A stretch of 64,000 nucleotides of DNA from an uncultured Actinomycetes bacterium (GCA_963704885.1 CAVPIB010000007.1:32001-96000), one strand, 5' to 3'; counted from the first letter of the stretch, positions 51,015 to 61,921 are shown. Notes: generated by a model from the letters alone, not told the origin. Numbers and translations are program-made.

Positions 51015-51943
51015 CCGACACGGTCCTCAGCTCGGCGAGCCGCGAGGTCGTGATCGGCAGCGGCCGCCCGTTCGTGATCATCGGAGAGCGGATCAATCCG
51101 ACGGGGCGCAAGAAGCTCGCCGAGGAGATGAAGGCCGGCGACTTCTCGACCGTGGTGACCGACGCGCTTGCGCAGGTCGAAGCGGGCGCCCAGATGCTGG
51201 ACGTGAACGCCGGCATCCCGCTCGCAGATGAGCCGGCGATCCTGGCCGAGACGATCAAGCTGGTTCAATCGCTCACCGACGTGCCGCTGTCGATCGACTC
51301 GTCGATCGTTGCGGCGCTCGAGGCCGGCCTCGCCGTGTATCAGGGCAAGCCTCTCGTCAACTCCGTGACCGGCGAGGACGAGCGTCTGGAGCAGGTCCTG
51401 CCTCTCGTGGCCAAGTACGGCGCCGCCGTCGTAGCGATCACGAACGACGAGACCGGGATCAGCGAGGATCCCGACGTGCGCTTCGCGGTCGCGGAGAAGA
51501 TCGTCCAGCACGCCGCCGACCACGGGATCGGGCCCGAAGACATCGTGGTCGATCCGCTGGTGATGCCGATCGGCGCCATGGGGACCGCGGGCCGCCAGGT
51601 GTTCACGCTCGTCCGCCGGCTGAGCCAGGAGCTTGGCGTCAACACCACGTGCGGCGCATCCAACGTGAGCTTCGGCCTGCCCAACCGCAACGCGCTGAAC
51701 GGGGCGTTCCTGTCCATGGCGATCGCGTCGGGCATGACCTCGGCGATCACGAGTCCGCTGCACGAGGAGGTCCGCGCCGCGGTGATGGCGGCAGACGTGA
51801 TGATGGGCAACGACCAGGACTGCGGCGCGTGGATCGCGAGCTTCCGCGAGCAACCGGCCGGGGGTACGGGCGGACGGCGTGGCGGCCGTGAAGGACGCCG
51901 GCGGGCTGCGACCGAGGCAGGGGAGGCCTCGCCCCCGTCGTGA
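51011..51943 (+). CDS. Methyltetrahydrofolate:corrinoid methyltransferase (pterin-binding, MetH-folate/AcsE-like)
   Basis: IIGERINPTG, LDVNAG, LSIDS, VNSV, VDPL, GASNVSFG. Confidence 0.92.
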   Translation: MTDTVLSSASREVVIGSGRPFVIIGERINPTGRKKLAEEMKAGDFSTVVTDALAQVEAGAQMLDVNAGIPLADEPAILAETIKLVQSLTDVPLSIDSSIVAALEAGLAVYQGKPLVNSVTGEDERLEQVLPLVAKYGAAVVAITNDETGISEDPDVRFAVAEKIVQHAADHGIGPEDIVVDPLVMPIGAMGTAGRQVFTLVRRLSQELGVNTTCGASNVSFGLPNRNALNGAFLSMAIASGMTSAITSPLHEEVRAAVMAADVMMGNDQDCGAWIASFREQPAGGTGGRRGGREGRRRAATEAGEASPPS

Positions 51944-53978
51944 ACGCCGCGACCGACGCACTCGTCGTCTTCACGCCCTCGGGCCAGCGGGGGCGGTTCG
52001 CGCACGGGACGAACCTTCTCGACGCGGCTCGCGCTCTGGGCGTGGATCTGGACTCGGTCTGCGGCGGGCGCGGGATCTGTGGGCGCTGCCAGGTGGTCGT
52101 GGCCGAGGGCGAGTTCGCGAAGCACGCGATCACGTCCAGCGCGGAGCACCTGACGCCTTTCTCGGCACCGGAGCAGGCCTATCGAGACCGATCCGGTCTG
52201 GCGCCGGAGCGCAGATTGGGTTGCCATTCGCGCGTGCTCGGGGACCTGGTCGTGGACGTGCCGCCGGAGAGTCAGCTCCATCGACAGGTCGTACGGAAGG
52301 AGGCCGACGCCCACGCGATCGAGGTCGATCCGGTCGTTCGGCTGCATTACGTCGAGGTGCGCGAGCCGGACATGAGCGATCCGTCCGGCGATCTGGAGCG
52401 CGTGCTCGAGTCATTGGAACGAGATTGGTCGCTCACCGGGCTGGACTGCGACGACCATGTGCTCGCGGTCCTACAGCGAACCCTTCGCGCCGGCGACTGG
52501 ACGGCGACGGTCGCCGTGCACGACGGTTCGACGATCGTGGGTGTTTGGCCGGGGTTCCACGACCGCATGTTCGGTGTGGCCTTCGACGTGGGGTCGACCA
52601 CCGTGGCGGGACACCTGTGCGACCTGGCGAGCGGGGAGGTCCTGGCGTCGGCCGGCGCCATGAACCCGCAGATCCGGTTCGGCGAGGATCTGATGAGCCG
52701 TGTGTCCTACCTGATGATGAACCCAGGCTCGGAGGGCGAGCTGACGCGCGTGATCCGGTCGTGCGTGAACGAGCTGACCGCGGAGCTTTGCTCGCACGCC
52801 GGCGCCGACGCGACGGACATCCTGGCGCTCACCGTGGTCGGGAACCCGATCATGCACCATCTCTTCCTGGGCCTGGACCCGACCGAACTTGGCGGCGCGC
52901 CGTTCGCCCTGGCCACGGACGGCGCCGTGCACCGGCGGGCCTCTGAGTTCGATCTCCACGTGCACCCCGGCGCGCGTGTATACCTGTTGCCCTGCATCGC
53001 GGGTCATGTGGGTGCGGACACCGCAGGCGTGATCCTGTCCGAGGCGCCCTACGACCAGGAGACCGTGAACCTGATCGTCGATGTCGGGACCAACGCCGAG
53101 ATCGTATTGGGCAACCGCGATCGACTGCTGGCCGCGTCTAGCCCGACCGGCCCTGCGTTCGAAGGCGCTCAGATCAGCTGCGGTCAGCGGGCGGCGCCCG
53201 GCGCGATCGAACGCGTCCGGATCGATCCGGCGACGTTGGAGCCGCGATTCAAGGTGATCGGCAACGACGCGTGGTCTCGACGAAACTGGGTTCGACGCAT
53301 CGCAGGTCACGGGCGTGTGCGGCTCCGGGATCATCGAGGTCGTGGCCGAGATGTTCCTTGCGGGCATCCTCACCACCGACGGCGTGATCGACGGCGGGCT
53401 CGCCTCGCGGACCCCGCGCATCGTTTCCGACGACCGTACGTTCTCCTACGTGCTGCACGAGGGCACGCCCCACCTCGCGATCACGCAGCCGGACATCCGA
53501 GCCATCCAGCTCGCCAAGGCCGCGCTGTATGCGGGGTGCCGGTTGTTGATGGATCACCTCGGTATCGACCACGTCGATCGGATCCGGCTGGCCGGGGCTT
53601 TCGGCGCCCAGATCGATCCGGTGCACGCGCTGATCCTGGGCCTGGTCCCCGACTGCGACCCGTCGCACGTGACGTCCGCCGGCAACGCGGCGGGTACGGG
53701 AGCGCGGATCGCCCTGCTCAACCGTGCCGCGCGCGCCGAGATCGAGGGATGTCGTTCGTCGGGTGGAGAAGATCGAGACGGCCCTGGAGACGCGGTTCCA
53801 GGAGCACTTCGTGGGCGCCATGGGGATCCCACACACGACGGAGCCGTCTCCGCGGCTGGCCGAGGTCGTGGAGCTCCCCGCCCCGCGCACGTCGGGCGGC
53901 GTCACCGGGAACGACCGCCGGAGACGCCGCCGCGTGCCCACGCCCGCAGACGGCACCGACGGAAGGAGCACCGGATGA
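51940..53978 (+). CDS. ASKHA/DUF4445 reductive activator of corrinoid proteins (RACo); apparent 1-bp insertions near 53276 and 53747
   Basis: [2Fe-2S] CGGRGICGRC, DVGSTT, NPQIRFGEDLMSR, DVGTNAE, TGPAFEG; next frames give CGSG, QLAKAA, LAGAFG, GNAAG and KIETALETRFQ. Confidence 0.88.
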
Positions 53979-55519
53979 GCGACGAACCCAGGACCGGGCG
54001 AAGGACCGGCGGCCGCGCCGGGAGGCAGGCCGCCCGGCTGGCCGCGGCGCCGGAGCGTGTGCCGTTCATCACCCGGACCCTGCCGCCGTTCGAGGTGCTT
54101 GCCACCGAAGGGCTCGAGCTGATCGAGAACAACGCCGACACGATCTTGGAGCAGGTGGGGATCGACTTCCGCGGCGCACCCGACGCCTTGAAGCTGCTGA
54201 AGGAGGCCGGAGCCGACGTCGACGGCGAGCGCGTCAGGTTCCCTCGGGGGATGTGTCGCCAGCTGATCCAGGCGACCGCCCCGCCGGTGTTCACGCAGTA
54301 CGCGCGCAACCCCGCCAACAACGTCCAGATCGGCGGCGACGCCACGGTCCTGGCGCCCGCCTACGGCTCTCCGTTCGTCCGCGATCTAGACGGTGGACGC
54401 CGGTACGGCACGATCGAAGACTTCCGCAACTTCGTGAAGCTCGCGTACTCGACGCCGTACCTCCATCACTCCGGCGGGACGGTCTGCGAGCCGGTCGACC
54501 TGCCGGTGAACAAGCGGCACTACGACATGGTCTACGCGCACATGCGGTATTCGGACAAGCCGTTCATGGGCTCGGTGACGCATCCGCAGCGCGCCCAGGA
54601 CACGGTGGATATGGCCCGGATCCTCTTCGGTGAGGACTACCTGGAGGACCACACCGTTGTCATGAGCCTGATCAACGCGAACTCGCCACTCGTATGGGAC
54701 TCGACCATGCTGGGCGCCGCGCGCGCGTACGCGCAGGCGAACCAGGCTGTGATCATGACTCCGTTCATCCTGGCCGGGGCTATGAGCCCGGCCACGGTGG
54801 CAGGCGCCGCGGCGCAGACGCTCGCCGAGTCCATGGCCGGCATGACGTACGTGCAACTCGTCCGCCCCGGGGCGCCGGTGGTGTTCGGGTCGTTCGCGTC
54901 GTCGATGTCCATGCAGTCGGGCGCGCCGACGTTCGGCACGCCCGAGCCCGCGCTGGTGCTCTACATCCTGGCGGCGTGCGCACGGAGGCTGAACGTGCCG
55001 TTCCGCAGCGGCGGCTCCCTGTGCGGATCCAAGATCCCGGACGCACAGGCGGCGTACGAGTCGGCGAACACGCTGCAGCCAACCATCCTGGGCGGCGCGA
55101 ACTTCGTGCTGCACGCGGCGGGCTGGCTGGAAGGCGGGCTGACCATGGGTTACGAGAAGTTCGTGATGGACCTGGATCAGTGCGGCATGATGCATGCGTT
55201 CGCGAAGGGAGTGGACCTGTCGCCCAACGGCCAGGCGCTGGACGCCATCATCGAGAACGGACCCGGCCAGCATTTCCTGGGGACGGCTCACACCTTGGCC
55301 AACTTCGAGACAGCGTTCTACCGGTCGTCGATCGCCGACAACAACAGCTACGAGCAGTGGGAGGACGACGGCTCGCTCGACGCGACTCACAGATCCGATG
55401 CCATCTGGAAGAAGATGTTGGCCGACTACGAGCCACCGCCGATAGATGAAGCGGTGGATGCAGAGCTACGAGACTGGATCGAGCGGCAGAAGGCCTCCTT
55501 CCCCGACTCGAACGTGTAA
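53975..55519 (+). CDS. Non-pyrrolysine MttB-superfamily methyltransferase (glycine betaine:corrinoid MT, MtgB-like)
   Basis: CEPVDLP, SDKPFMG, NANSPL, GAMSPAT, GAPTFGTPE, SKIPDAQAAYES, HAAGWLEGG; no in-frame TAG. Confidence 0.92.
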   Translation: MSDEPRTGRRTGGRAGRQAARLAAAPERVPFITRTLPPFEVLATEGLELIENNADTILEQVGIDFRGAPDALKLLKEAGADVDGERVRFPRGMCRQLIQATAPPVFTQYARNPANNVQIGGDATVLAPAYGSPFVRDLDGGRRYGTIEDFRNFVKLAYSTPYLHHSGGTVCEPVDLPVNKRHYDMVYAHMRYSDKPFMGSVTHPQRAQDTVDMARILFGEDYLEDHTVVMSLINANSPLVWDSTMLGAARAYAQANQAVIMTPFILAGAMSPATVAGAAAQTLAESMAGMTYVQLVRPGAPVVFGSFASSMSMQSGAPTFGTPEPALVLYILAACARRLNVPFRSGGSLCGSKIPDAQAAYESANTLQPTILGGANFVLHAAGWLEGGLTMGYEKFVMDLDQCGMMHAFAKGVDLSPNGQALDAIIENGPGQHFLGTAHTLANFETAFYRSSIADNNSYEQWEDDGSLDATHRSDAIWKKMLADYEPPPIDEAVDAELRDWIERQKASFPDSNV

Positions 55520-55533
55520 CCGGAAGGAACCGA

Positions 55534-56409
55534 GTGGCCCTGACGCTTCGACGACGCAAGCAGCACGAGCCCACCCCAGATGAGCGGGGGGCGCTGGCGG
55601 CACTCGTCGCAGGAGCCAAGCTCGAGGTCATCCCGCTCCTGAACGCGCTCGGAACCTGCGAGGCCCTGCCACCCGGTTCGATGGTGACGGTCACCTCGTC
55701 TCCGAGCCACGGGATCGAGGCGACCGTCGAGCTGGCCGAGAAGCTCGCGACGCTCGGCCACACCGTCATCCCGCATCTGTCCGCGCACATGATCTGGACA
55801 CGCCAGCACCTCGAGGACCTGCTGGAGCGCCTGGCGGAAGGAGGCTTCCGTCGCGTGTTCGTCGTGGGCGGCGACGCCCAGGACCACGGCGACTTCCACG
55901 ACGGCCTGTCGTTGCTCCGCGCCATCGACGAGCTCGGCCGTCCGTTCGACGAGATCGGCGTGCCCTCCTACCCCGAGGGTCACCCCAGGATCTCCGACGA
56001 GCGGCTGCTGGAGGTCCTGCTCGAGAAGCAGCGGTACGCGTCGTACATGACCACGCAGATGAGCTTCAACCCGAGCGCCATCGCCGGGTGGATCGGCCGG
56101 ATGCGCGCCTCCGGGGTGACGCTACCGGTCCACATCGGCCTGCCCGGCGTCGCGGACCTCACCAAGCTCATGACGATCGCGGCTCGGATCGGCGTGGCCG
56201 ACTCGGCCCGCTACCTGAAGAAGAACCGCAACCTGATCGGCCAGGTGATCAAGGGTCGTTTCGGCCCCGACGCGCTGCTGCGGGAGCTGGCCCCGACCCT
56301 CGCGGATCCCGCGGCCGACGTCGCAGCGCTCCACGTCTTCACGTTCAACCAGGTCGAGAGAACCGTGGCCTGGCAGCGCGGCATGCTTGGCTCGCTGAGC
56401 ACGGGCTGA
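55534..56409 (+). CDS. metF: Methylenetetrahydrofolate reductase family protein
   Basis: PHLSA, VFVVGGD, YPEGHP, TQMSF, HVFTFN. Confidence 0.8.
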   Translation: MALTLRRRKQHEPTPDERGALAALVAGAKLEVIPLLNALGTCEALPPGSMVTVTSSPSHGIEATVELAEKLATLGHTVIPHLSAHMIWTRQHLEDLLERLAEGGFRRVFVVGGDAQDHGDFHDGLSLLRAIDELGRPFDEIGVPSYPEGHPRISDERLLEVLLEKQRYASYMTTQMSFNPSAIAGWIGRMRASGVTLPVHIGLPGVADLTKLMTIAARIGVADSARYLKKNRNLIGQVIKGRFGPDALLRELAPTLADPAADVAALHVFTFNQVERTVAWQRGMLGSLSTG

Positions 56410-56473: not shown

Positions 56474-57244
56474 TCAAGGCTTCACGGCGCGGATCGGGTA
56501 CCCGTAGGTTCCGAACTGCCGGGCCTGGTCTTCACCGCCGGCTCCGCCGAACGTGTCAACGATGGGTCCGAACTCCACCTCGGTGAGGCCCGCGCCCTGG
56601 ATCACCGTCACCCACCCTGCGCACGGCAGGGCACCTGCTATTCAGCCGGTCCAAAGATCGATGTCGCTGAGCGCGGACTCAGGGACGGGTTCCTCGACGC
56701 AGATGTCAGCGATCTGGGCGCGACCGCCTGGCTTCAGGACCCGGGCGATCTCCCGGTAGGCGCCGAGCTTGTCCGGGACGAGGTTGATCACCCCGTTCGA
56801 GATAACGACATCTGCCCATCCGTCGTCCACAGGGAGCTTCTCGGCGAAACCGTCGCGGAACTCGACGTTTGGGATCTCAGCCTCTTCGGCACCCTCCCGA
56901 GCCCGCTCGAGCATCTCGGGCGTCATGTCGACGCCGACGACGCGCCCTTCGACGCCGACGGCGTTGGCCGCGACCATGGCGTCCATGCCGGTTCCTGAGC
57001 CGACGTCGACGACGCGCTCCCCGGGCCGGGGCAAGCCCCAATGGAACGGGTTGGCTACGCCGGCGAACGACGCGATCGAGGACTTCGGGAGCCCTTCCAA
57101 CCACTCGTCCAGATAGCCCGCATTAGCCGCTGCGCGGAGACCGGTATGGAAATGGAACGTGGCGTCAGGGTGCTCGACGACCTCCACGTACTTGGTCCGG
57201 ATCTCATCGCGCAGCTTGGCGACGTCCACCGCGATCCCGGCCAT
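56474..57244 (-). CDS. ArsM-like SAM-dependent methyltransferase, probable selenoprotein (TGA 56642-56644 = Sec201; 256 aa)
   Basis: VVDVGSGTGMD, GVDMTPEM, ISNGVINL, LKPGG, then LWTG-TGA-IAGAL and 55 open codons in total to the TGA at 56474; GAGGAG RBS before ATG 57244. Confidence 0.85.
56614..56632 (-). promoter_or_regulatory. Putative bacterial SECIS element
   Basis: mRNA GCCCUGC-CGUGC-GCAGGGU; Watson-Crick stem starts +11 and the GU-containing loop starts +17 after the UGA. Confidence 0.7.
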
Positions 57245-57256
57245 GGTCTTCACTCC

Positions 57257-57622
57257 TCACGCGAACGCCACGGTCTTGGCGCCCGCCACGACCTCCTCGA
57301 CCACCTTGGCCGCGCCGACGATGATAGACCCCTTGCGCACCTGCTCTTCGCCGATGCCCCTGGGCTTCGCGCAAGCCCCACAGATCCAGACCGTGCCGCC
57401 GTTGTCCACGAACTCCTGGTAGAGGTCGTCCAGGACGGGCAGTCCCGGCTGGGCGATGCCGTCCGTTCCGTCCGTGGTCCCGAGCCAAACGGCCTCGATC
57501 GTGCAGAGGACCACTGCTTCTTGCCCGGCCGTCGCTGCGATGTTTGCTGCCACGAAGGGGAGCGTCGCCCGCTCTGGTTCCTCCTTGCCGTACGTGCAGT
57601 TGAAGATCAGCTTCTCGCTCAT
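57257..57622 (-). CDS. DsrE/DsrF-like protein
   Basis: TYGKEEPERATLPFVAA, CTIEAV, ICGACAKPRG, IVGAAKV. Confidence 0.88.
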   Translation of the reverse strand: MSEKLIFNCTYGKEEPERATLPFVAANIAATAGQEAVVLCTIEAVWLGTTDGTDGIAQPGLPVLDDLYQEFVDNGGTVWICGACAKPRGIGEEQVRKGSIIVGAAKVVEEVVAGAKTVAFA

Positions 57623-57624
57623 CC

Positions 57625-58266
57625 TCACCGTCTCCTTTCCACCGTCATCAGGAGGCGTCCGTCATCGGGCGTCTCTATCGATCGAACCTCATGTCCCATC
57701 ATCCGGGCCAGCGGAGGCAGATCCTCTTTCGCCGCGGGATCACGCGCGGTCACCACGAGCACGTCGCCGACCGGGATCGCTCCGATCCGCCGACGGAACT
57801 CCGTGGCCAGGCCGTCAGCGCACCCGAGGTCGCCCGCGTCGTAGGGATGGGCGCCGCTCGACTCATCTCCAGGCCCCATGACCGGAAGGAAGCCCGAGCA
57901 CAGGAGATCGATCCCTTCTAGGCGCCCGTCCGGCGCGACGTCGGCCACCACATGTTGCTCGATCACCTGCCAACCGTCGGCATCGTGGAGGCTGAACCGG
58001 TACGTGAGCACCAGCCGGTCCGCCACGGTTCCGACGTTCGAGGACTCGAGGCGCAGCTCGTCGACGTCTCCGTACCAGCCGACGAACGCCTCAACCGCTT
58101 CGGCGACTCCCGAGTGAGCTTGCGGTCCTTTGGGCAGGAGCAGTCGGAACCGCACGTCGTCGGCGATCAGCGCGTGGAACCTCACGAAGTCGCGATCCGC
58201 AAGGGCCTTGACGAAAGCCTCCCCAACCTTCTGCATGAGGTCTTCGGAGGTCGTTGCGATGGTCAT
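57625..58266 (-). CDS. SnoaL/NTF2-like domain fused to TusA-like sulfur carrier
   Basis: N-part 'FVKALADRDF...IADDVRFR..LP...IEQH...IDLLCSGF'; C-part 'YDAGDLGC...GDVLVVTARDPAAKEDLP...GHEV'. Confidence 0.8.
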   Translation of the reverse strand: MTIATTSEDLMQKVGEAFVKALADRDFVRFHALIADDVRFRLLLPKGPQAHSGVAEAVEAFVGWYGDVDELRLESSNVGTVADRLVLTYRFSLHDADGWQVIEQHVVADVAPDGRLEGIDLLCSGFLPVMGPGDESSGAHPYDAGDLGCADGLATEFRRRIGAIPVGDVLVVTARDPAAKEDLPPLARMMGHEVRSIETPDDGRLLMTVERRR

Positions 58267-58299
58267 GAGGCGACGATAGGCAGAGCGCGCCCGTGCCAC

Positions 58300-58317
58300 A
58301 TGAGGCGTCTACCCCAT
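58300..58317. promoter_or_regulatory. Imperfect inverted repeat upstream of the SnoaL-TusA promoter (candidate LuxR-type operator)
   Basis: ATGAGG-CGTCTA-CCCCAT lying in the -35 region of a TATCGT -10 (58273-58278, minus strand). Confidence 0.45.
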
Positions 58318-58331
58318 CTTTGGGGCGGATA

Positions 58332-59897
58332 TCAGTCGGCTACGGCAGCCACGTCGATCAAGCCATGCCGCATCGCGAAGAGCGCAGCCGCACCGCGGCT
58401 CCTTACGCCGAGTTTGGCGTAGATGTGCTCCTCGTGGTTGCTGACCGTCTTGGCCGAGATGGTCAACTCCTGCGCGATCTGCTTCTGGGTCGATCCGCGA
58501 GATAGCAGTACCAGTACCTCGACCTCGCGGGCGGTGAGCCCGCCCGCATGGCTCGTCTTACGGCGCACCCGATGCCCGGCTGCGTCCAGCACCGCGCGAA
58601 CGGCGTCGCCGTCCAGGCGACCATCGGTCACCTCCGCTGTGAGCACTGTTCGGGCCTCGTCCCGCGGCCACGCGGCGCGATGGGGTCGCGGTTCCAGCAG
58701 CGCGTGGTACACGTCGGCGGCCGCGATCACACGTGCGGTCATCGGGAGGCTGTCGGCCGTTAGGCCCGACGGGTAGCCGGATCCGTCCATCCGCTCATGG
58801 TGCTTCGCCGCGAGCTGCCCTATCGCGGCTAGAGGCGGGGGCTTGGAGAACGTTCGCGCCGTGAGATAGGGATGGGTGCGGATCCGCTCTCGTTCGGCCT
58901 CGGTGAGCGGCCCGACCTTGTCCAAGATCCCGGCCGGAACACCGATGGAACCTACGTCGTGGATGAGCGAGGCTCGACGCACGAGCACGATGTCGTCGTT
59001 AGGCAGACCGACGATGGCGGCCGCGGCCGCCGCAAGATCCGCGACGCCTCGGGAACGTCCGAGCAAGAACGGCGACTTCACGTCCGCGTAGTCGGCGAAG
59101 GCTTCCAACGCTCGATCGAGTTCCTCACCGCTGAGCTCACGCGCCAGCTCGCCGTGCCCGCCGATCAGCGTGTCCCAGCCGTCGAGCTCGTCTATGGAGG
59201 CGAGCAGCTCGTCGGCATGGATGCAGAACCGGTCGACGAGCTCTGGATCGAACTCCGTGCCACGTCGGGAGCGAAGCATCTCGACAGCCGCGTCCACCCC
59301 GCCTATCCGATGTAGGGCCTCAACGTCGTTGGCGATATGGACGATCCGCGCTATGCGGGCGATCTCGCCACCCGCCAACTTGGCCGGATAGCCCTTGCCG
59401 TCCCAGCGTTCGAACGCTTGCTGCAGCGGGTCACGCACTTCGGGACCCAGTCCGAGTCGGAGCGACAGGTCGCCCGAGGTCTCACAGTGGGAGGCCATCG
59501 AGCGCTGGACCTCCTTAGACCCGCCCGCGAGGAACCTGCCGATCATCGTGAACCGCCGGATCGCCGAGCTCCCGCTGGCGACGTGACCGATCATGAAGCG
59601 CATCATCGGCAAACCGGTCATGTCGACGAGGTAGCTGTCGGCCCGCACGGCTGTGTCGTCGCCGAACCACTTGCCCATCTCGTGCGCGTCGGCCACGCAA
59701 CCGACCCACGCGAGGAGCGACACGTAGAAGATCGCGGCCCGCTCGTCGTCGGACAGGCCCTCGAGCTCGGCCATGCGCAGGGCGATAAGCGTCTGCCGGA
59801 TGATGTGCTGCTGCGGTTGACCCAGTCCTAGATCCGTCGCCAGCGACAGCGCCGCCACCAGCTCAGCTAGCCGAACGCCGTCTCCGGCTCCCGTCAT
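58332..59897 (-). CDS. Double HD/HD-GYP domain protein with C-terminal LuxR HTH
   Basis: LAELVAALSLATDLGLG, degenerate first domain (ERWDGKGYP), second domain HDVG...HHERMDGSGYP, LTAREVEVL...ISAKTVSNH..IYAKLGV. Confidence 0.93.
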   Translation of the reverse strand: MTGAGDGVRLAELVAALSLATDLGLGQPQQHIIRQTLIALRMAELEGLSDDERAAIFYVSLLAWVGCVADAHEMGKWFGDDTAVRADSYLVDMTGLPMMRFMIGHVASGSSAIRRFTMIGRFLAGGSKEVQRSMASHCETSGDLSLRLGLGPEVRDPLQQAFERWDGKGYPAKLAGGEIARIARIVHIANDVEALHRIGGVDAAVEMLRSRRGTEFDPELVDRFCIHADELLASIDELDGWDTLIGGHGELARELSGEELDRALEAFADYADVKSPFLLGRSRGVADLAAAAAAIVGLPNDDIVLVRRASLIHDVGSIGVPAGILDKVGPLTEAERERIRTHPYLTARTFSKPPPLAAIGQLAAKHHERMDGSGYPSGLTADSLPMTARVIAAADVYHALLEPRPHRAAWPRDEARTVLTAEVTDGRLDGDAVRAVLDAAGHRVRRKTSHAGGLTAREVEVLVLLSRGSTQKQIAQELTISAKTVSNHEEHIYAKLGVRSRGAAALFAMRHGLIDVAAVAD

Positions 59898-59949
59898 CTC
59901 CCCAGGGTACAAGTGCACGCAGCTGGCCTGGGGACCGCCCGACAGCGGG

Positions 59950-60090: not shown

Positions 60091-60350
60091 ACTCGGTGAC
60101 CGCCTCTTCGCCCCCAGGGGCGCGGCCCGCGGTGCTCGATCGTTGGTGCTGACCACTCCTCCTGGGACGGCGTCGCCATGGCCCACATAGGCTTCTCCTA
60201 CCGGCGCGACCGGCCCAACTAGCTCGAAACAGCCCCGGGCCCAGTGCGATCTATCCACCGGGGTCCGAAGGGGTCAACGCCGGAACACATCATGTCGGTC
60301 CCGTGCGCTACGCTTCGCTGAGCTCCTCCCCCCATGCACGAGGAGACACG

Positions 60351-60695
60351 ATGTCAGCGGAGCTGGTCCAAACGCTCGTGAACGCCATCTTGCTGATCGG
60401 CGTGACGCTCATCGCGGGATCCATCGGCCTCAAGCGGTTCGAAGCGATCGACCGACGATTCGAAGTCATCGATCGCCGGTTCGAGGTCATCGACGCGCGG
60501 TTCGAGTCCTTGGAGCGTTCGCTTACCGCCTCGATCACGGGAGCGATCGATGGCCTGCGCAGCGAGCTGAAGCACGACATCGCGCTCGTAGACGCTCATG
60601 TGGGAGAGGTTCGAACAGAGGTGGCGCAGACGCGATCCGACCTCACCTACGTGGCCTTGGCGGTAGGGGCGCGACGAGCCGAAGGCTCGAACTAG
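60351..60695 (+). CDS. Small membrane-anchored coiled-coil protein with heptad repeats
   Basis: GAGGAG RBS, N-terminal TM helix, RFEAIDR/RFEVIDR/RFEVIDA/RFESLER. Confidence 0.7.
   Translation: MSAELVQTLVNAILLIGVTLIAGSIGLKRFEAIDRRFEVIDRRFEVIDARFESLERSLTASITGAIDGLRSELKHDIALVDAHVGEVRTEVAQTRSDLTYVALAVGARRAEGSN
60435..60518 (+). repeat. 4 x 21-bp degenerate coding tandem repeat
   Basis: cggttcgaagcgatcgaccga / cgattcgaagtcatcgatcgc / cggttcgaggtcatcgacgcg / cggttcgagtccttggagcgt. Confidence 0.85.
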
Positions 60696-61112: not shown

Positions 61113-61421
61113 ATGGCAGCGGCGAACGCGCGAGACTTGAAAAAGGCACGCCTGAATCTGCGTCTGTCAGCTCGCGAGAAGGCGGACTTGGAGGAAGCTG
61201 CGAGATCGCGAGCAGAGTCCGTGTCCTCCTTCGTCAAAGGCGCGGCCAACGCCGAGGCGCAGAAAGTGCTGTCTGAGCGGGTCTTGTTCGCGATCGACGC
61301 GAAGCGATGGGAGCTCTTCAATCAGGCTCTAGATCGTCCTGTCGTAGACAAGCCCCGTCTGCGCGCGCTCCTTGAGTCGCCCTCCATCTTCGAGACCGCT
61401 ATCGGTTCCGAAGAGGTGTGA
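61113..61421 (+). CDS. DUF1778 RHH antitoxin (TacA/AtaR-like)
   Basis: KKARLNLRLS...SVSSFV..AA...WELFNQALDRP...PRLRALL. Confidence 0.9.
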   Translation: MAAANARDLKKARLNLRLSAREKADLEEAARSRAESVSSFVKGAANAEAQKVLSERVLFAIDAKRWELFNQALDRPVVDKPRLRALLESPSIFETAIGSEEV

Positions 61422-61921
61422 CCAGGCTCGTACCTCCCGAACCCCTGGAGGAGCGTCATCTCACGCTCGGCTTCAACTGTGGTGAGCCAGCTCTGGATGA
61501 CTGGTTGTCCAGGTACGCCCTGATCAGCGAGCGCTCGAGCACGGCGCGAACATACGTGACGCACGCCGGAAAGAACGAGGTGAAGGGTTTCTACACGCTT
61601 GCTGCGGGAAGCGTGTCACCCGACGCGGCTCCAGACCGAGTGAGCAAAGGGGGAGGGCAGCAGCAGGTACCTGTGATCGTGCTTGCCCGACTCGCTGTTG
61701 ATCAGAGCGTGCAGCGCCAGGGTGTAGGTAGAGGACTCGTCAAGGACGCACTCGTTCGCGTTGCCAGTGCCAGCAAGATCATAGGGATCCGAGCGGTTCT
61801 CGTTCACCTCAAAGACCCGGCGATGTCGGGCTTCTACGAGCAGTTCGACTTCGAGGCTAGTCCTACCGAGGAAGGCCAGATGTTCTTGCTCATGAAGGAC
61901 CTCTTGGCGGCACTCCCCTAG
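61418..61921 (+). CDS. GNAT acetyltransferase toxin (TacT/AtaT-like)
   Basis: FNCGEPALDDWL, VPVIVLARLAVD, QRQGVG, GIRAVLVH, FYEQFDF; GTGA overlap with the antitoxin. Confidence 0.9.
   Translation: MTRLVPPEPLEERHLTLGFNCGEPALDDWLSRYALISERSSTARTYVTHAGKNEVKGFYTLAAGSVSPDAAPDRVSKGGGQQQVPVIVLARLAVDQSVQRQGVGRGLVKDALVRVASASKIIGIRAVLVHLKDPAMSGFYEQFDFEASPTEEGQMFLLMKDLLAALP

Follow-up and report, generated by a model that had tools for sequence, protein, structure and literature searches.

A TusA–DsrE–ArsM-like gene cluster with a probable selenocysteine methyltransferase in a soil actinobacterium, and a possible role in chalcogen relay

Gene organisation of the locus

A 64,000-nucleotide (nt) stretch of DNA from an uncultured Actinomycetes bacterium (GCA_963704885.1, CAVPIB010000007.1:32001-96000; the whole stretch is referred to here as the window) carries four minus-strand open reading frames (ORFs) that encode a tandem HD-GYP/LuxR regulator, a SnoaL–TusA fusion, a DsrE-like protein and an ArsM-like methyltransferase dependent on S-adenosylmethionine (SAM), the last interrupted by an in-frame TGA codon (Table 1). 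The source is a soil actinobacterium whose 3.0 Mb genome is assembled in 20 contigs and is 97% complete. An earlier note, made from the DNA sequence alone, had described four co-oriented genes, the last three tightly spaced, and had suggested that they capture and methylate a sulfur, selenium or thio-metalloid species. ORF translation and Pfam searches bear out the four genes and their expected domains.

Given the ATG starts at 57622 and 57244, the spacing also agrees with the earlier description, with 2 nt between the SnoaL–TusA and DsrE genes and 12 nt between the DsrE and methyltransferase genes. AGGAG-type ribosome sites precede both downstream genes. Translation of the SnoaL–TusA gene probably starts at the ATG at 58266, because residue 12 of the GTG form is where homologues start to align. 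The regulator is given here in its GTG form, where the earlier note took the ATG at 59897. The motifs DLLCSGF, DLGCADG and CGAC, and a selenocysteine (Sec) with a cysteine seven residues later (U204 and C211), are all present in the translations. A terminator scan found none inside the cluster, an Rfam scan of the window returned no family matches, and Pfam and NCBIfam scans together with a neighbour scan found no dsr, hdr or tRNA-thiolation genes near the operon.

Table 1. Coordinates and sequence assignments of the cluster within the window.
Feature	Position	Strand	Details
Tandem HD-GYP/LuxR regulator	58332..59918	-	528 amino acids (aa) from GTG; Pfam HD_5 x2 + GerE
Regulator–operon intergenic region	58267..58331	-	Likely promoter/operator of the three-gene operon; compared with L023, L024, L097 and L104
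SnoaL_2–TusA fusion	57625..58266	-	ORF 57625-58299 in GTG form; Pfam SnoaL_2 31.5 bits, TusA 32 bits
DsrE-fold protein, CGAC (CxxC)	57257..57622	-	ORF 57257-57628; Pfam DsrE 41.7 bits; ATG at 57622
ArsM-like SAM methyltransferase selenoprotein (very probable)	56474..57253	-	259 aa from GTG; likely ATG 57244; Pfam Methyltransf_31/11/25
SECIS-like (selenocysteine insertion sequence-like) hairpin	56614..56632	-	7-bp stem, 5-nt loop CGUGC; starts 9 nt after UGA

Selenocysteine in the methyltransferase

Under genetic code table 11 the methyltransferase frame stops at TGA 56642-56644, and it stays in frame for 55 further codons to TGA 56474-56476. On comparative sequence evidence, it is very probable that the first of these codons specifies Sec. 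The source genome holds tRNA-Sec, SelA, SelB and SelD, all four above their model cut-offs; the tRNA-Sec scores 70.9 bits and is assigned the anticodon TCA by ARAGORN, and selB and selA lie side by side. The selD gene was found twice with an identical score of 372.7 bits, on two small contigs (G000:C20:5731-6654 and G000:C14:8433-9356), which an assembly duplicate or a real duplication may explain.

Among the 120 best database homologues, 119 are 195–221 aa long and cover 75–78% of the query, and are therefore called only up to the TGA codon; the sole exception is a run-on ORF with an ArsR-rhodanese gene. Databases thus cut the gene at its UGA and label the product 'arsenite methyltransferase'. 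In 401 genomes of the phylum, exactly one in-frame TGA is present in 28 of the 30 best genome matches (45–100% identity), and forms with cysteine start at 53% identity and lower. An alignment of 37 sequences places these residues in one column, occupied by a stop in 30 and by cysteine in seven. Conservation continues beyond it to residue 259, and at 259 aa the cysteine-form homologues match the window's read-through product in length.

The SECIS-like hairpin is paired in 96.6% of cells across 29 distinct sequences, and two of its pairs show compensatory changes, from C-G to G-C and from C-G to U-A (12 cells). Its covariation score was reached by none of 500 shuffles, and slid registers pair at 22–51%. 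The single-sequence fold was not better than shuffles, with a z-score that was not significant.

Relationship to canonical ArsM enzymes

The best NCBIfam matches of the methyltransferase are all ArsM-type models and its best solved structures are ArsM enzymes. The NCBIfam scores nevertheless lie below the cut-offs: 227.6 versus 510 for NF041537, 199 versus 263 for NF008823, and 197.6 versus 575 and 192 versus 460 for fused ArsM-type models. When aligned to solved ArsM structures (5evj, 5eg5 and 4kw7), the window enzyme has Val for the Cys of FWGCGNP and Gly for the Cys of ISNCVINL, and places Sec at the Cys of GECLAGAL. The altered segments FAG[VIT]xN and SNG[VA] are common to all 37 aligned relatives.

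Relative to ArsM/AS3MT (5evj, 4fr0, 4kw7 and 5eg5), the enzyme therefore shares the fold, the SAM-binding motifs and the Cys224-equivalent position, as Sec, but has Val and Gly at the Cys72- and Cys174-equivalents; the N-terminal Cys region did not align. These residue numbers follow CmArsM. A second cysteine lies seven residues after Sec in the window clade and eight residues before the corresponding position in the seven cysteine forms, and it looks like a resolving residue. The pattern of substitutions suggests that this ArsM-like clade cannot bind arsenite in the canonical manner. Because the arsenic-binding cysteines are missing, the methyltransferase probably acts on a sulfur or selenium species rather than on arsenic.

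The Sec 'arsenite methyltransferase' family (NF008823/PRK11873, UxxG), together with NF041537, NF041536 and NF047649, shares the ArsM-like Rossmann fold with the window enzyme. Both have Sec at the Cys of GxC(L/I)xGA (UIAG in the window enzyme), a hairpin after the UGA and truncated calls of about 200 aa. The window enzyme differs in being a stand-alone protein of 259 aa with one Sec and no AhpD, DUF2284 or UXPK tail, and, as judged against the solved ArsM structures, it lacks the other ArsM cysteines.

Five loci (L067, L073, L075, L076 and L079) encode, downstream of an extracytoplasmic function (ECF) sigma factor and a zf-HC2 anti-sigma protein, another ArsM-like paralogue of about 40% identity. 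It has an in-frame TGA at the same site (WAG-U-VAGAL) and the ArsM cysteines are also missing. In three further loci (L071, L083 and L084) this paralogue has Cys instead of Sec, with a fusion to a cupin domain in L071.

The TusA–DsrE pair

The cysteines of the two putative carrier proteins are conserved far more than chance would give. C134 and C160 of the SnoaL–TusA fusion are kept in 52 of 52 sequences, and C11, C83 and C86 of the DsrE-like protein in 87 of 87, with C42 kept in 82 of these. The TusA site of the fusion reads CADG, not CPxP, and an invariant Cys also lies in DLLCSGF. An AlphaFold2 model of the fusion has a predicted local distance difference test (pLDDT) score of 84.7, its N-terminal half adopts a generic ketosteroid-isomerase/NTF2 fold by Foldseek, and Atlas clusters of the fusion comprise 437, 53 and 91 members. 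The DsrE model has a pLDDT of 96.7, with best Foldseek matches to 3mc3, 2qs7, YchN, DsrEFH and TusBCD. A fold search was needed for this placement; a sequence search of the PDB returned only 3mc3, at E 0.14.

A metagenome scan with the DsrE protein yielded 320 relatives, of which 80 loci were kept. Wherever at least 250 nt of upstream sequence was available, a TusA-like domain lay directly upstream of DsrE (76 of 76 loci). Among the 57 loci that extend 700 nt or more upstream, TusA was fused to SnoaL in 48 and stood alone in nine; the stand-alone forms still begin near the CSGF motif. As judged from these sequences, TusA–DsrE is an obligate pair.

At the gene level, the window has the arrangement of a TusA/DsrE relay, with a conserved-cysteine TusA fold adjoining a DsrE-fold protein, as in TusA/TusBCD, TusA/DsrEFH and DsrE3A-TusA. 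DsrEFH (2hy5) and TusBCD (2d1p) are also structural matches to the window DsrE. In place of a heterohexamer with one active Cys, the window has a single DsrE-fold gene with CxxC, whose product comes closest in structure to two uncharacterised proteins of Sulfolobus, 3mc3 and 2qs7. A relative with UxxC, as in the DsrE-like UxxC selenoproteins, is present in one locus (L078).

In YedF (TIGR03527), as described in PMC5322559, a SirA-like domain precedes a DsrE-like one that bears a CGXC motif, and the protein is linked statistically to SelD. The window pair shares both domains and their order with YedF, and hhalign places its CGAC on the CGTC of YedF, at the same place in the DsrE-like fold, with a probability of 24%. 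It differs from YedF in being two adjacent genes, in an added NTF2-like domain in front and in CADG for CPxP. By these comparisons TusA–DsrE would work like a split YedF at most and would not be a member of that family.

The regulator and the promoter region

Residues 16–429 of the regulator, spanning both HD-GYP domains, align end to end with V-cGAP3 (PDB 5z7c; E 3.3e-53), a tandem HD-GYP 3′3′-cGAMP phosphodiesterase. As in V-cGAP3, the first HD-GYP domain is degenerate, without HD and HHE. The window regulator differs in its C-terminal LuxR helix-turn-helix (HTH) domain and in altered ligands in the second domain, where the window clade has Arg for the first metal-ligand His (GRSRGVA). A sister clade of about 50% identity keeps this His, but there HHE has become VNE, ANE or TNE and GYP has become GYH. 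The regulator thus falls short of the complete H...HD...H...HHE...D ligand set and GYP motif of an HD-GYP phosphodiesterase. Because these motifs are lost, the regulator is probably a sensor and not an enzyme in both clades. In domain terms it is probably a ligand-sensing protein with an impaired phosphodiesterase site, and it looks like a cyclic-dinucleotide-type HD-GYP protein and not an obvious sulfur, selenium or arsenic sensor. The V-cGAP3-like tandem HD-GYP–LuxR HTH family also occurs in other loci (L103, L129, L132, L143 and L172), with different catalytic motifs lost in each clade, and its members may be cyclic-dinucleotide-responsive transcription factors.

The earlier note had placed an apparently leaderless promoter in front of the last three genes and an inverted repeat between them and the regulator. 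A 25-nt box at 58297-58321 is conserved in the window and in all four close relatives (L023, L024, L097 and L104). The close clade also conserves a TANNNT hexamer, TATCGT at 58273-58278, at a distance of 6 nt from the ATG at 58266. The box and the hexamer support a separate, nearly leaderless promoter, which is plausible rather than proven; a sigma-70 consensus scan found 0 sites inside the cluster. The inverted repeat did not hold up: the repeat scan found none of at least 8 nt between the regulator and the operon, and the only candidate is a 5-bp stem, CCCCA/TGGGG, which the window shares with L104 and not with L023, L024 or L097.

Genomic contexts of the pair and of the methyltransferase

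Nine genome loci were recovered with the SnoaL–TusA query. All four genes occur in the same order, with the TGA in ArsM, in three of these; one has the regulator, SnoaL–TusA and DsrE, one has the regulator and SnoaL only, and in four TusA and DsrE are found with other regulators. A full HD-GYP/LuxR gene lies upstream in 6 of the 32 metagenome loci with at least 1700 nt of upstream sequence. The order TusA–DsrE–ArsM is seen in the window, L023, L024, L026, L097 and L098, and the order ArsM–TusA–DsrE in L073. Elsewhere the pair accompanies BTAD regulators with SCO4226-like genes, AAA-TPR-LuxR regulators, adenylate/guanylate cyclases, an ArsR-rhodanese gene with an SQR-like gene, or other SAM methyltransferases. 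Class III adenylate/guanylate cyclase genes recur beside TusA–DsrE in seven loci (L023, L028, L123, L125, L132, L134 and L165), the L165 cyclase being fused to an SCO4226-like domain. Many loci have SCO4226-like genes of 83 aa, together with divergent BTAD regulators, in front of the pair.

Of the 22 genomes that have a DsrE of the window type at 60% identity or more, eight also carry the Sec form of the ArsM-like gene, ArsM(U), usually on a different contig; overall it is found in 28 of the 401. The unpublished genomes G226, G120 and G048 are among the 28 with TGA-carrying matches, and G120 is also among the 22 DsrE genomes and the eight that overlap. G226, G120, G048, G268 and G001 stand inside the TGA, window-type DsrE and selD tallies, and the selD tally has further flagged genomes.

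The surroundings of ArsM-like genes were examined in 33 loci, taken from as many published genomes in the phylum sample; the unpublished G226, G120, G048 and G268 are not among them. ORFs of at least 70 aa within 2.6 kb were scanned. Neighbour counts are lower bounds, as genes were called with a crude ORF picker weighted by GC3 (GC content at third codon positions), which put some on the wrong strand. ECF sigma factors were neighbours in 12 of the 33 loci, five of these with zf-HC2 anti-sigma proteins; ArsR-HTH–rhodanese fusions in nine; DsrE-like genes in seven; GloB/Blh-like metallo-β-lactamase (MBL) proteins in four; TusA in one; and the HD-GYP/LuxR regulator or the SnoaL–TusA fusion in none. 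Type III SQR-like and YeeE/TsuA-like genes each occurred at single loci.

The seven DsrE-like neighbours, which come from five different families, comprise one UxxC selenoprotein, one protein of the window type with TusA (in the other order) and five members of a second subfamily whose CxxC aligns with the window CxxC columns. In one locus (L088) the start codon of the DsrE-like gene overlaps the methyltransferase stop. The UxxC gene, at L078:8801-9160 (-), belongs to the DsrE family and has an in-frame TGA where CxxC has its first Cys (V-U-G-S-C). It sits between an ArsR-rhodanese gene and an ArsM(U) gene, giving two selenoprotein genes in one operon.

A 90%-identical orthologue of the methyltransferase in the same genus is separated by 19 nt from an ArsR-rhodanese gene upstream and by 12 nt from a GloB/Blh-like MBL-rhodanese gene downstream. 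ArsR-family regulators, rhodaneses and GloB/Blh-like dioxygenases near the orthologues recall the BigR/Blh- and CstR-type sulfide-detoxification operons, as do the SQR-like and TsuA-like genes. None of these lies in the window's own operon, and NCBIfam matches of the neighbours to Blh, BigR and SQR are far below the cut-offs. According to PMC12904073, Actinomycetota methylate H2S and methanethiol through small SAM enzymes that are induced by H2S and oxidative stress. MddA, MddH and MddM are S-methyltransferases of H2S and methanethiol; MddM1 and MddM2 belong to the UbiG and UbiE families, and that paper has no mention of ArsM or Sec.

A proposed chalcogen relay

It is tentatively proposed that the three-gene operon encodes a thiol/selenol relay by which a chalcogen methyltransferase is supplied or recycled during a response to reactive sulfur. 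The chalcogen handled would most likely be sulfane sulfur, with selenium as a possibility; sulfur is preferred because the orthologues have sulfide-oxidation-type genes as neighbours. The TusA-like domain, through the Cys of CADG and that of DLLCSGF, and the CxxC of DsrE would carry the chalcogen or exchange thiol/disulfide equivalents. The enzyme would combine the retained ArsM fold and SAM site with one substrate-binding position kept as Sec and the second Cys close by. Its selenol would first accept the chalcogen from the carriers as an Se–S or Se–Se adduct, which would then be methylated by SAM. The nearby Cys would resolve the adduct with release of methanethiol or methylselenol, and the Se–S bond would finally be re-reduced by the CxxC protein or by thioredoxin. 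DsrE could be a substrate donor or a reductant. The HD-GYP/LuxR regulator most likely controls the operon via the conserved box in front of it.

The idea of chalcogen transfer and methylation put forward in the earlier note fits the locus better than the label 'arsenite methyltransferase', given the loss of the cysteines in 37 of 37 relatives and the sulfur-trafficking neighbours, but its synteny is narrow. Extension of the proposal to the Sec 'arsenite methyltransferases' of soil Actinomycetota in general appears unlikely. In that reading they would be protein-fed chalcogen methyltransferases and not arsenic enzymes: a split-YedF-like TusA/DsrE relay, or rhodanese, would load sulfane sulfur or selenium onto the active-site selenol, SAM would methylate the adduct, and methanethiol or methylselenol would be released, giving soils a regulated source of volatile sulfur and selenium compounds that has so far gone unrecognised.

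Several observations weigh against the proposed relay. Although the four genes recur in three genome loci, the methyltransferase is not beside the pair in the other six of nine, and ArsM(U) follows DsrE in only 2 of the 47 metagenome loci that extend 800 nt or more downstream, and in one further locus that is shorter. The regulator and the fusion are missing from the 33 ArsM-anchored loci, which hold a single TusA, and this marks the four-gene unit as an assembly specific to one clade. The neighbours seen most often beside ArsM-like genes are ECF sigma factors, which point to a general thiol/envelope stress regulon and not to a relay. Furthermore, the neighbourhood counts overstate the support because kin are not independent; drawn from related genomes, they show a theme rather than a statistic.

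Membership of the window pair in YedF was rejected, since the YedF model TIGR03527 (cut-off 110 bits) gave no match to it even at E 10; its only matches were three other TusA-like genes, at 20 bits or less. The hhalign probabilities of the window against YedF are low, at 24% and 35%. The selD gene is present in 20 of the 22 genomes with window-type DsrE versus 276 of the 401 overall, a tally that does not discriminate because the clade is rich in selD and the two genomes without it are only 62% and 69% complete. Public RNA runs gave only contigs of relatives.

Relatives were likewise what public sequencing runs contained: no run contained more than 17% of the sampled words, and the contigs are about 85–95% identical. 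One 861-nt contig of a relative spans arsM, dsrE and tusA, from a library that is probably DNA, and an oligo-dT soil RNA library held arsM-like and dsrE-like contigs of relatives. A complex prediction for the natural Cys-form ArsM-like/DsrE-like pair of L088 (score 0.00, mark 0.32) counts neither for nor against the relay.

Alternative explanations

The alternative that survives best, though we judge it rather unlikely, is that TusA–DsrE and the regulator form an autonomous redox/carrier module, behind which the ArsM-like selenoprotein happened to be recruited in one small clade as a mobile stress gene, co-regulated with the pair and uncoupled from it in function. The rarity of ArsM(U) downstream of DsrE in the metagenome loci is consistent with this, as are the many other regulators and neighbours of TusA–DsrE (BTAD with SCO4226-like genes, AAA-TPR-LuxR and cyclases) and the occurrence of ArsM(U) in at least three other contexts. 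Within the same genus, genome G170 has ArsM(U) and no window-type DsrE match. Such independence is harder to reconcile with an adjacency that arose in two gene orders (the window type and L073), with the second DsrE-like CxxC subfamily that also adjoins ArsM-like genes, to the point of start/stop overlap in L088, and with the close spacing in the window, which suggests coupled translation. The enrichment of ArsM(U) in genomes with window-type DsrE also argues for a connection.

It is less probable that the enzyme is a genuine methyltransferase of arsenic (or antimony or tellurium), in which Sec and Cys211 bind the metalloid and TusA/DsrE act as thiol reductants or handlers of thio-arsenic species. 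The ArsM-type family models and structures that match it best are in line with such a role, Sec falls exactly at a known arsenic-binding Cys, and neighbouring regulators are of the ArsR family. In addition, 'arsenite methyltransferase, UxxG' stands among experimentally verified selenoproteins in PMC13188914, which cites Fomenko et al. 2007. However, all 37 relatives lack two of the three aligned cysteines that bind arsenic in ArsM, and the score against NF008823 is below its cut-off. The arsC, acr3 and arsB families were not found among the 273 neighbour ORFs scanned (150 + 55 + 122, less 54 overlapping by locus type), and the ArsR proteins are fused to rhodanese domains, with GloB/Blh-like and SQR-like genes as neighbours.

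Equally doubtful is a selenium-specific system, in which the pair, as a functional counterpart of YedF divided over two genes, would move selenium, and excess selenide or perselenide would be detoxified through methylation by the Sec enzyme: the domain order and CGXC motif that the pair shares with SelD-linked YedF, the hhalign alignment of the CGxC motifs, split YedF forms in the phylum (matches to positions 76–194 alone), a source genome that uses Sec and the occurrence of YedF proper in 0 of 22 genomes of the window's family, which leaves room for an analogue, are set against the silence of TIGR03527, the CADG site in place of CPxP, mid-range DsrE homologues (43–53% identical) in 4 of 15 f12-family genomes without a selD match, and the sulfide-oxidation-type neighbours of ArsM(U) elsewhere.

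Novelty and significance

Each gene family of the cluster is already known: the DsrE-like UxxC proteins and the Sec 'arsenite methyltransferases' are listed selenoprotein families (PMC2398784 and PMC13188914). Only the combination of TusA, DsrE and ArsM(U) appears to be new. The earlier note had not recognised it as a named pathway, rightly for the combination, of which no description was found in the full-text literature searched, a search whose reach did not include Haft & Tolstoy 2025 and Fomenko 2007; the parts are catalogued selenoprotein or carrier families.

The ArsM-like clade is widespread and lives among persulfide-handling genes. If its members methylate sulfane sulfur or selenium, they would form a new enzyme class in the production of methanethiol, dimethylsulfide or methylselenide in soil. 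The relay would also give a first functional handle on the orphan DsrE-like CxxC/UxxC proteins and the SnoaL–TusA fusions. If the enzyme is merely a methyltransferase of a stress regulon, the result is a sound but ordinary correction of annotation.

Other features of the window

Convergent with the operon lies a cluster of activase, MttB and MTHFR genes for methyl-group demethylation. Its RACo/AcsV-like corrinoid reductive activase, at 51940-55519 (+), is apparently split over two frames near 53315-53400, for which a frameshift or an assembly error could account. The N-terminal domains are encoded in ORF 51940-54633, and the C-terminal part opens ORF 53315-55519, which runs on into an MttB-family methyltransferase without a pyrrolysine (Pyl) codon; next comes an MTHFR-like gene (55534-56409).

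Directly upstream of the regulator and on the opposite strand, a 130-aa ORF at 60303-60695 (+) has no family match and contains a tandem IDRRFEV-type heptad repeat (FEAIDRRFEVIDRRFEVIDARFE). At 61113-61921 (+), a gene for a TacA-like antitoxin (PF08681) overlaps a GNAT acetyltransferase gene by 4 nt, forming a TacAT-type toxin–antitoxin pair.

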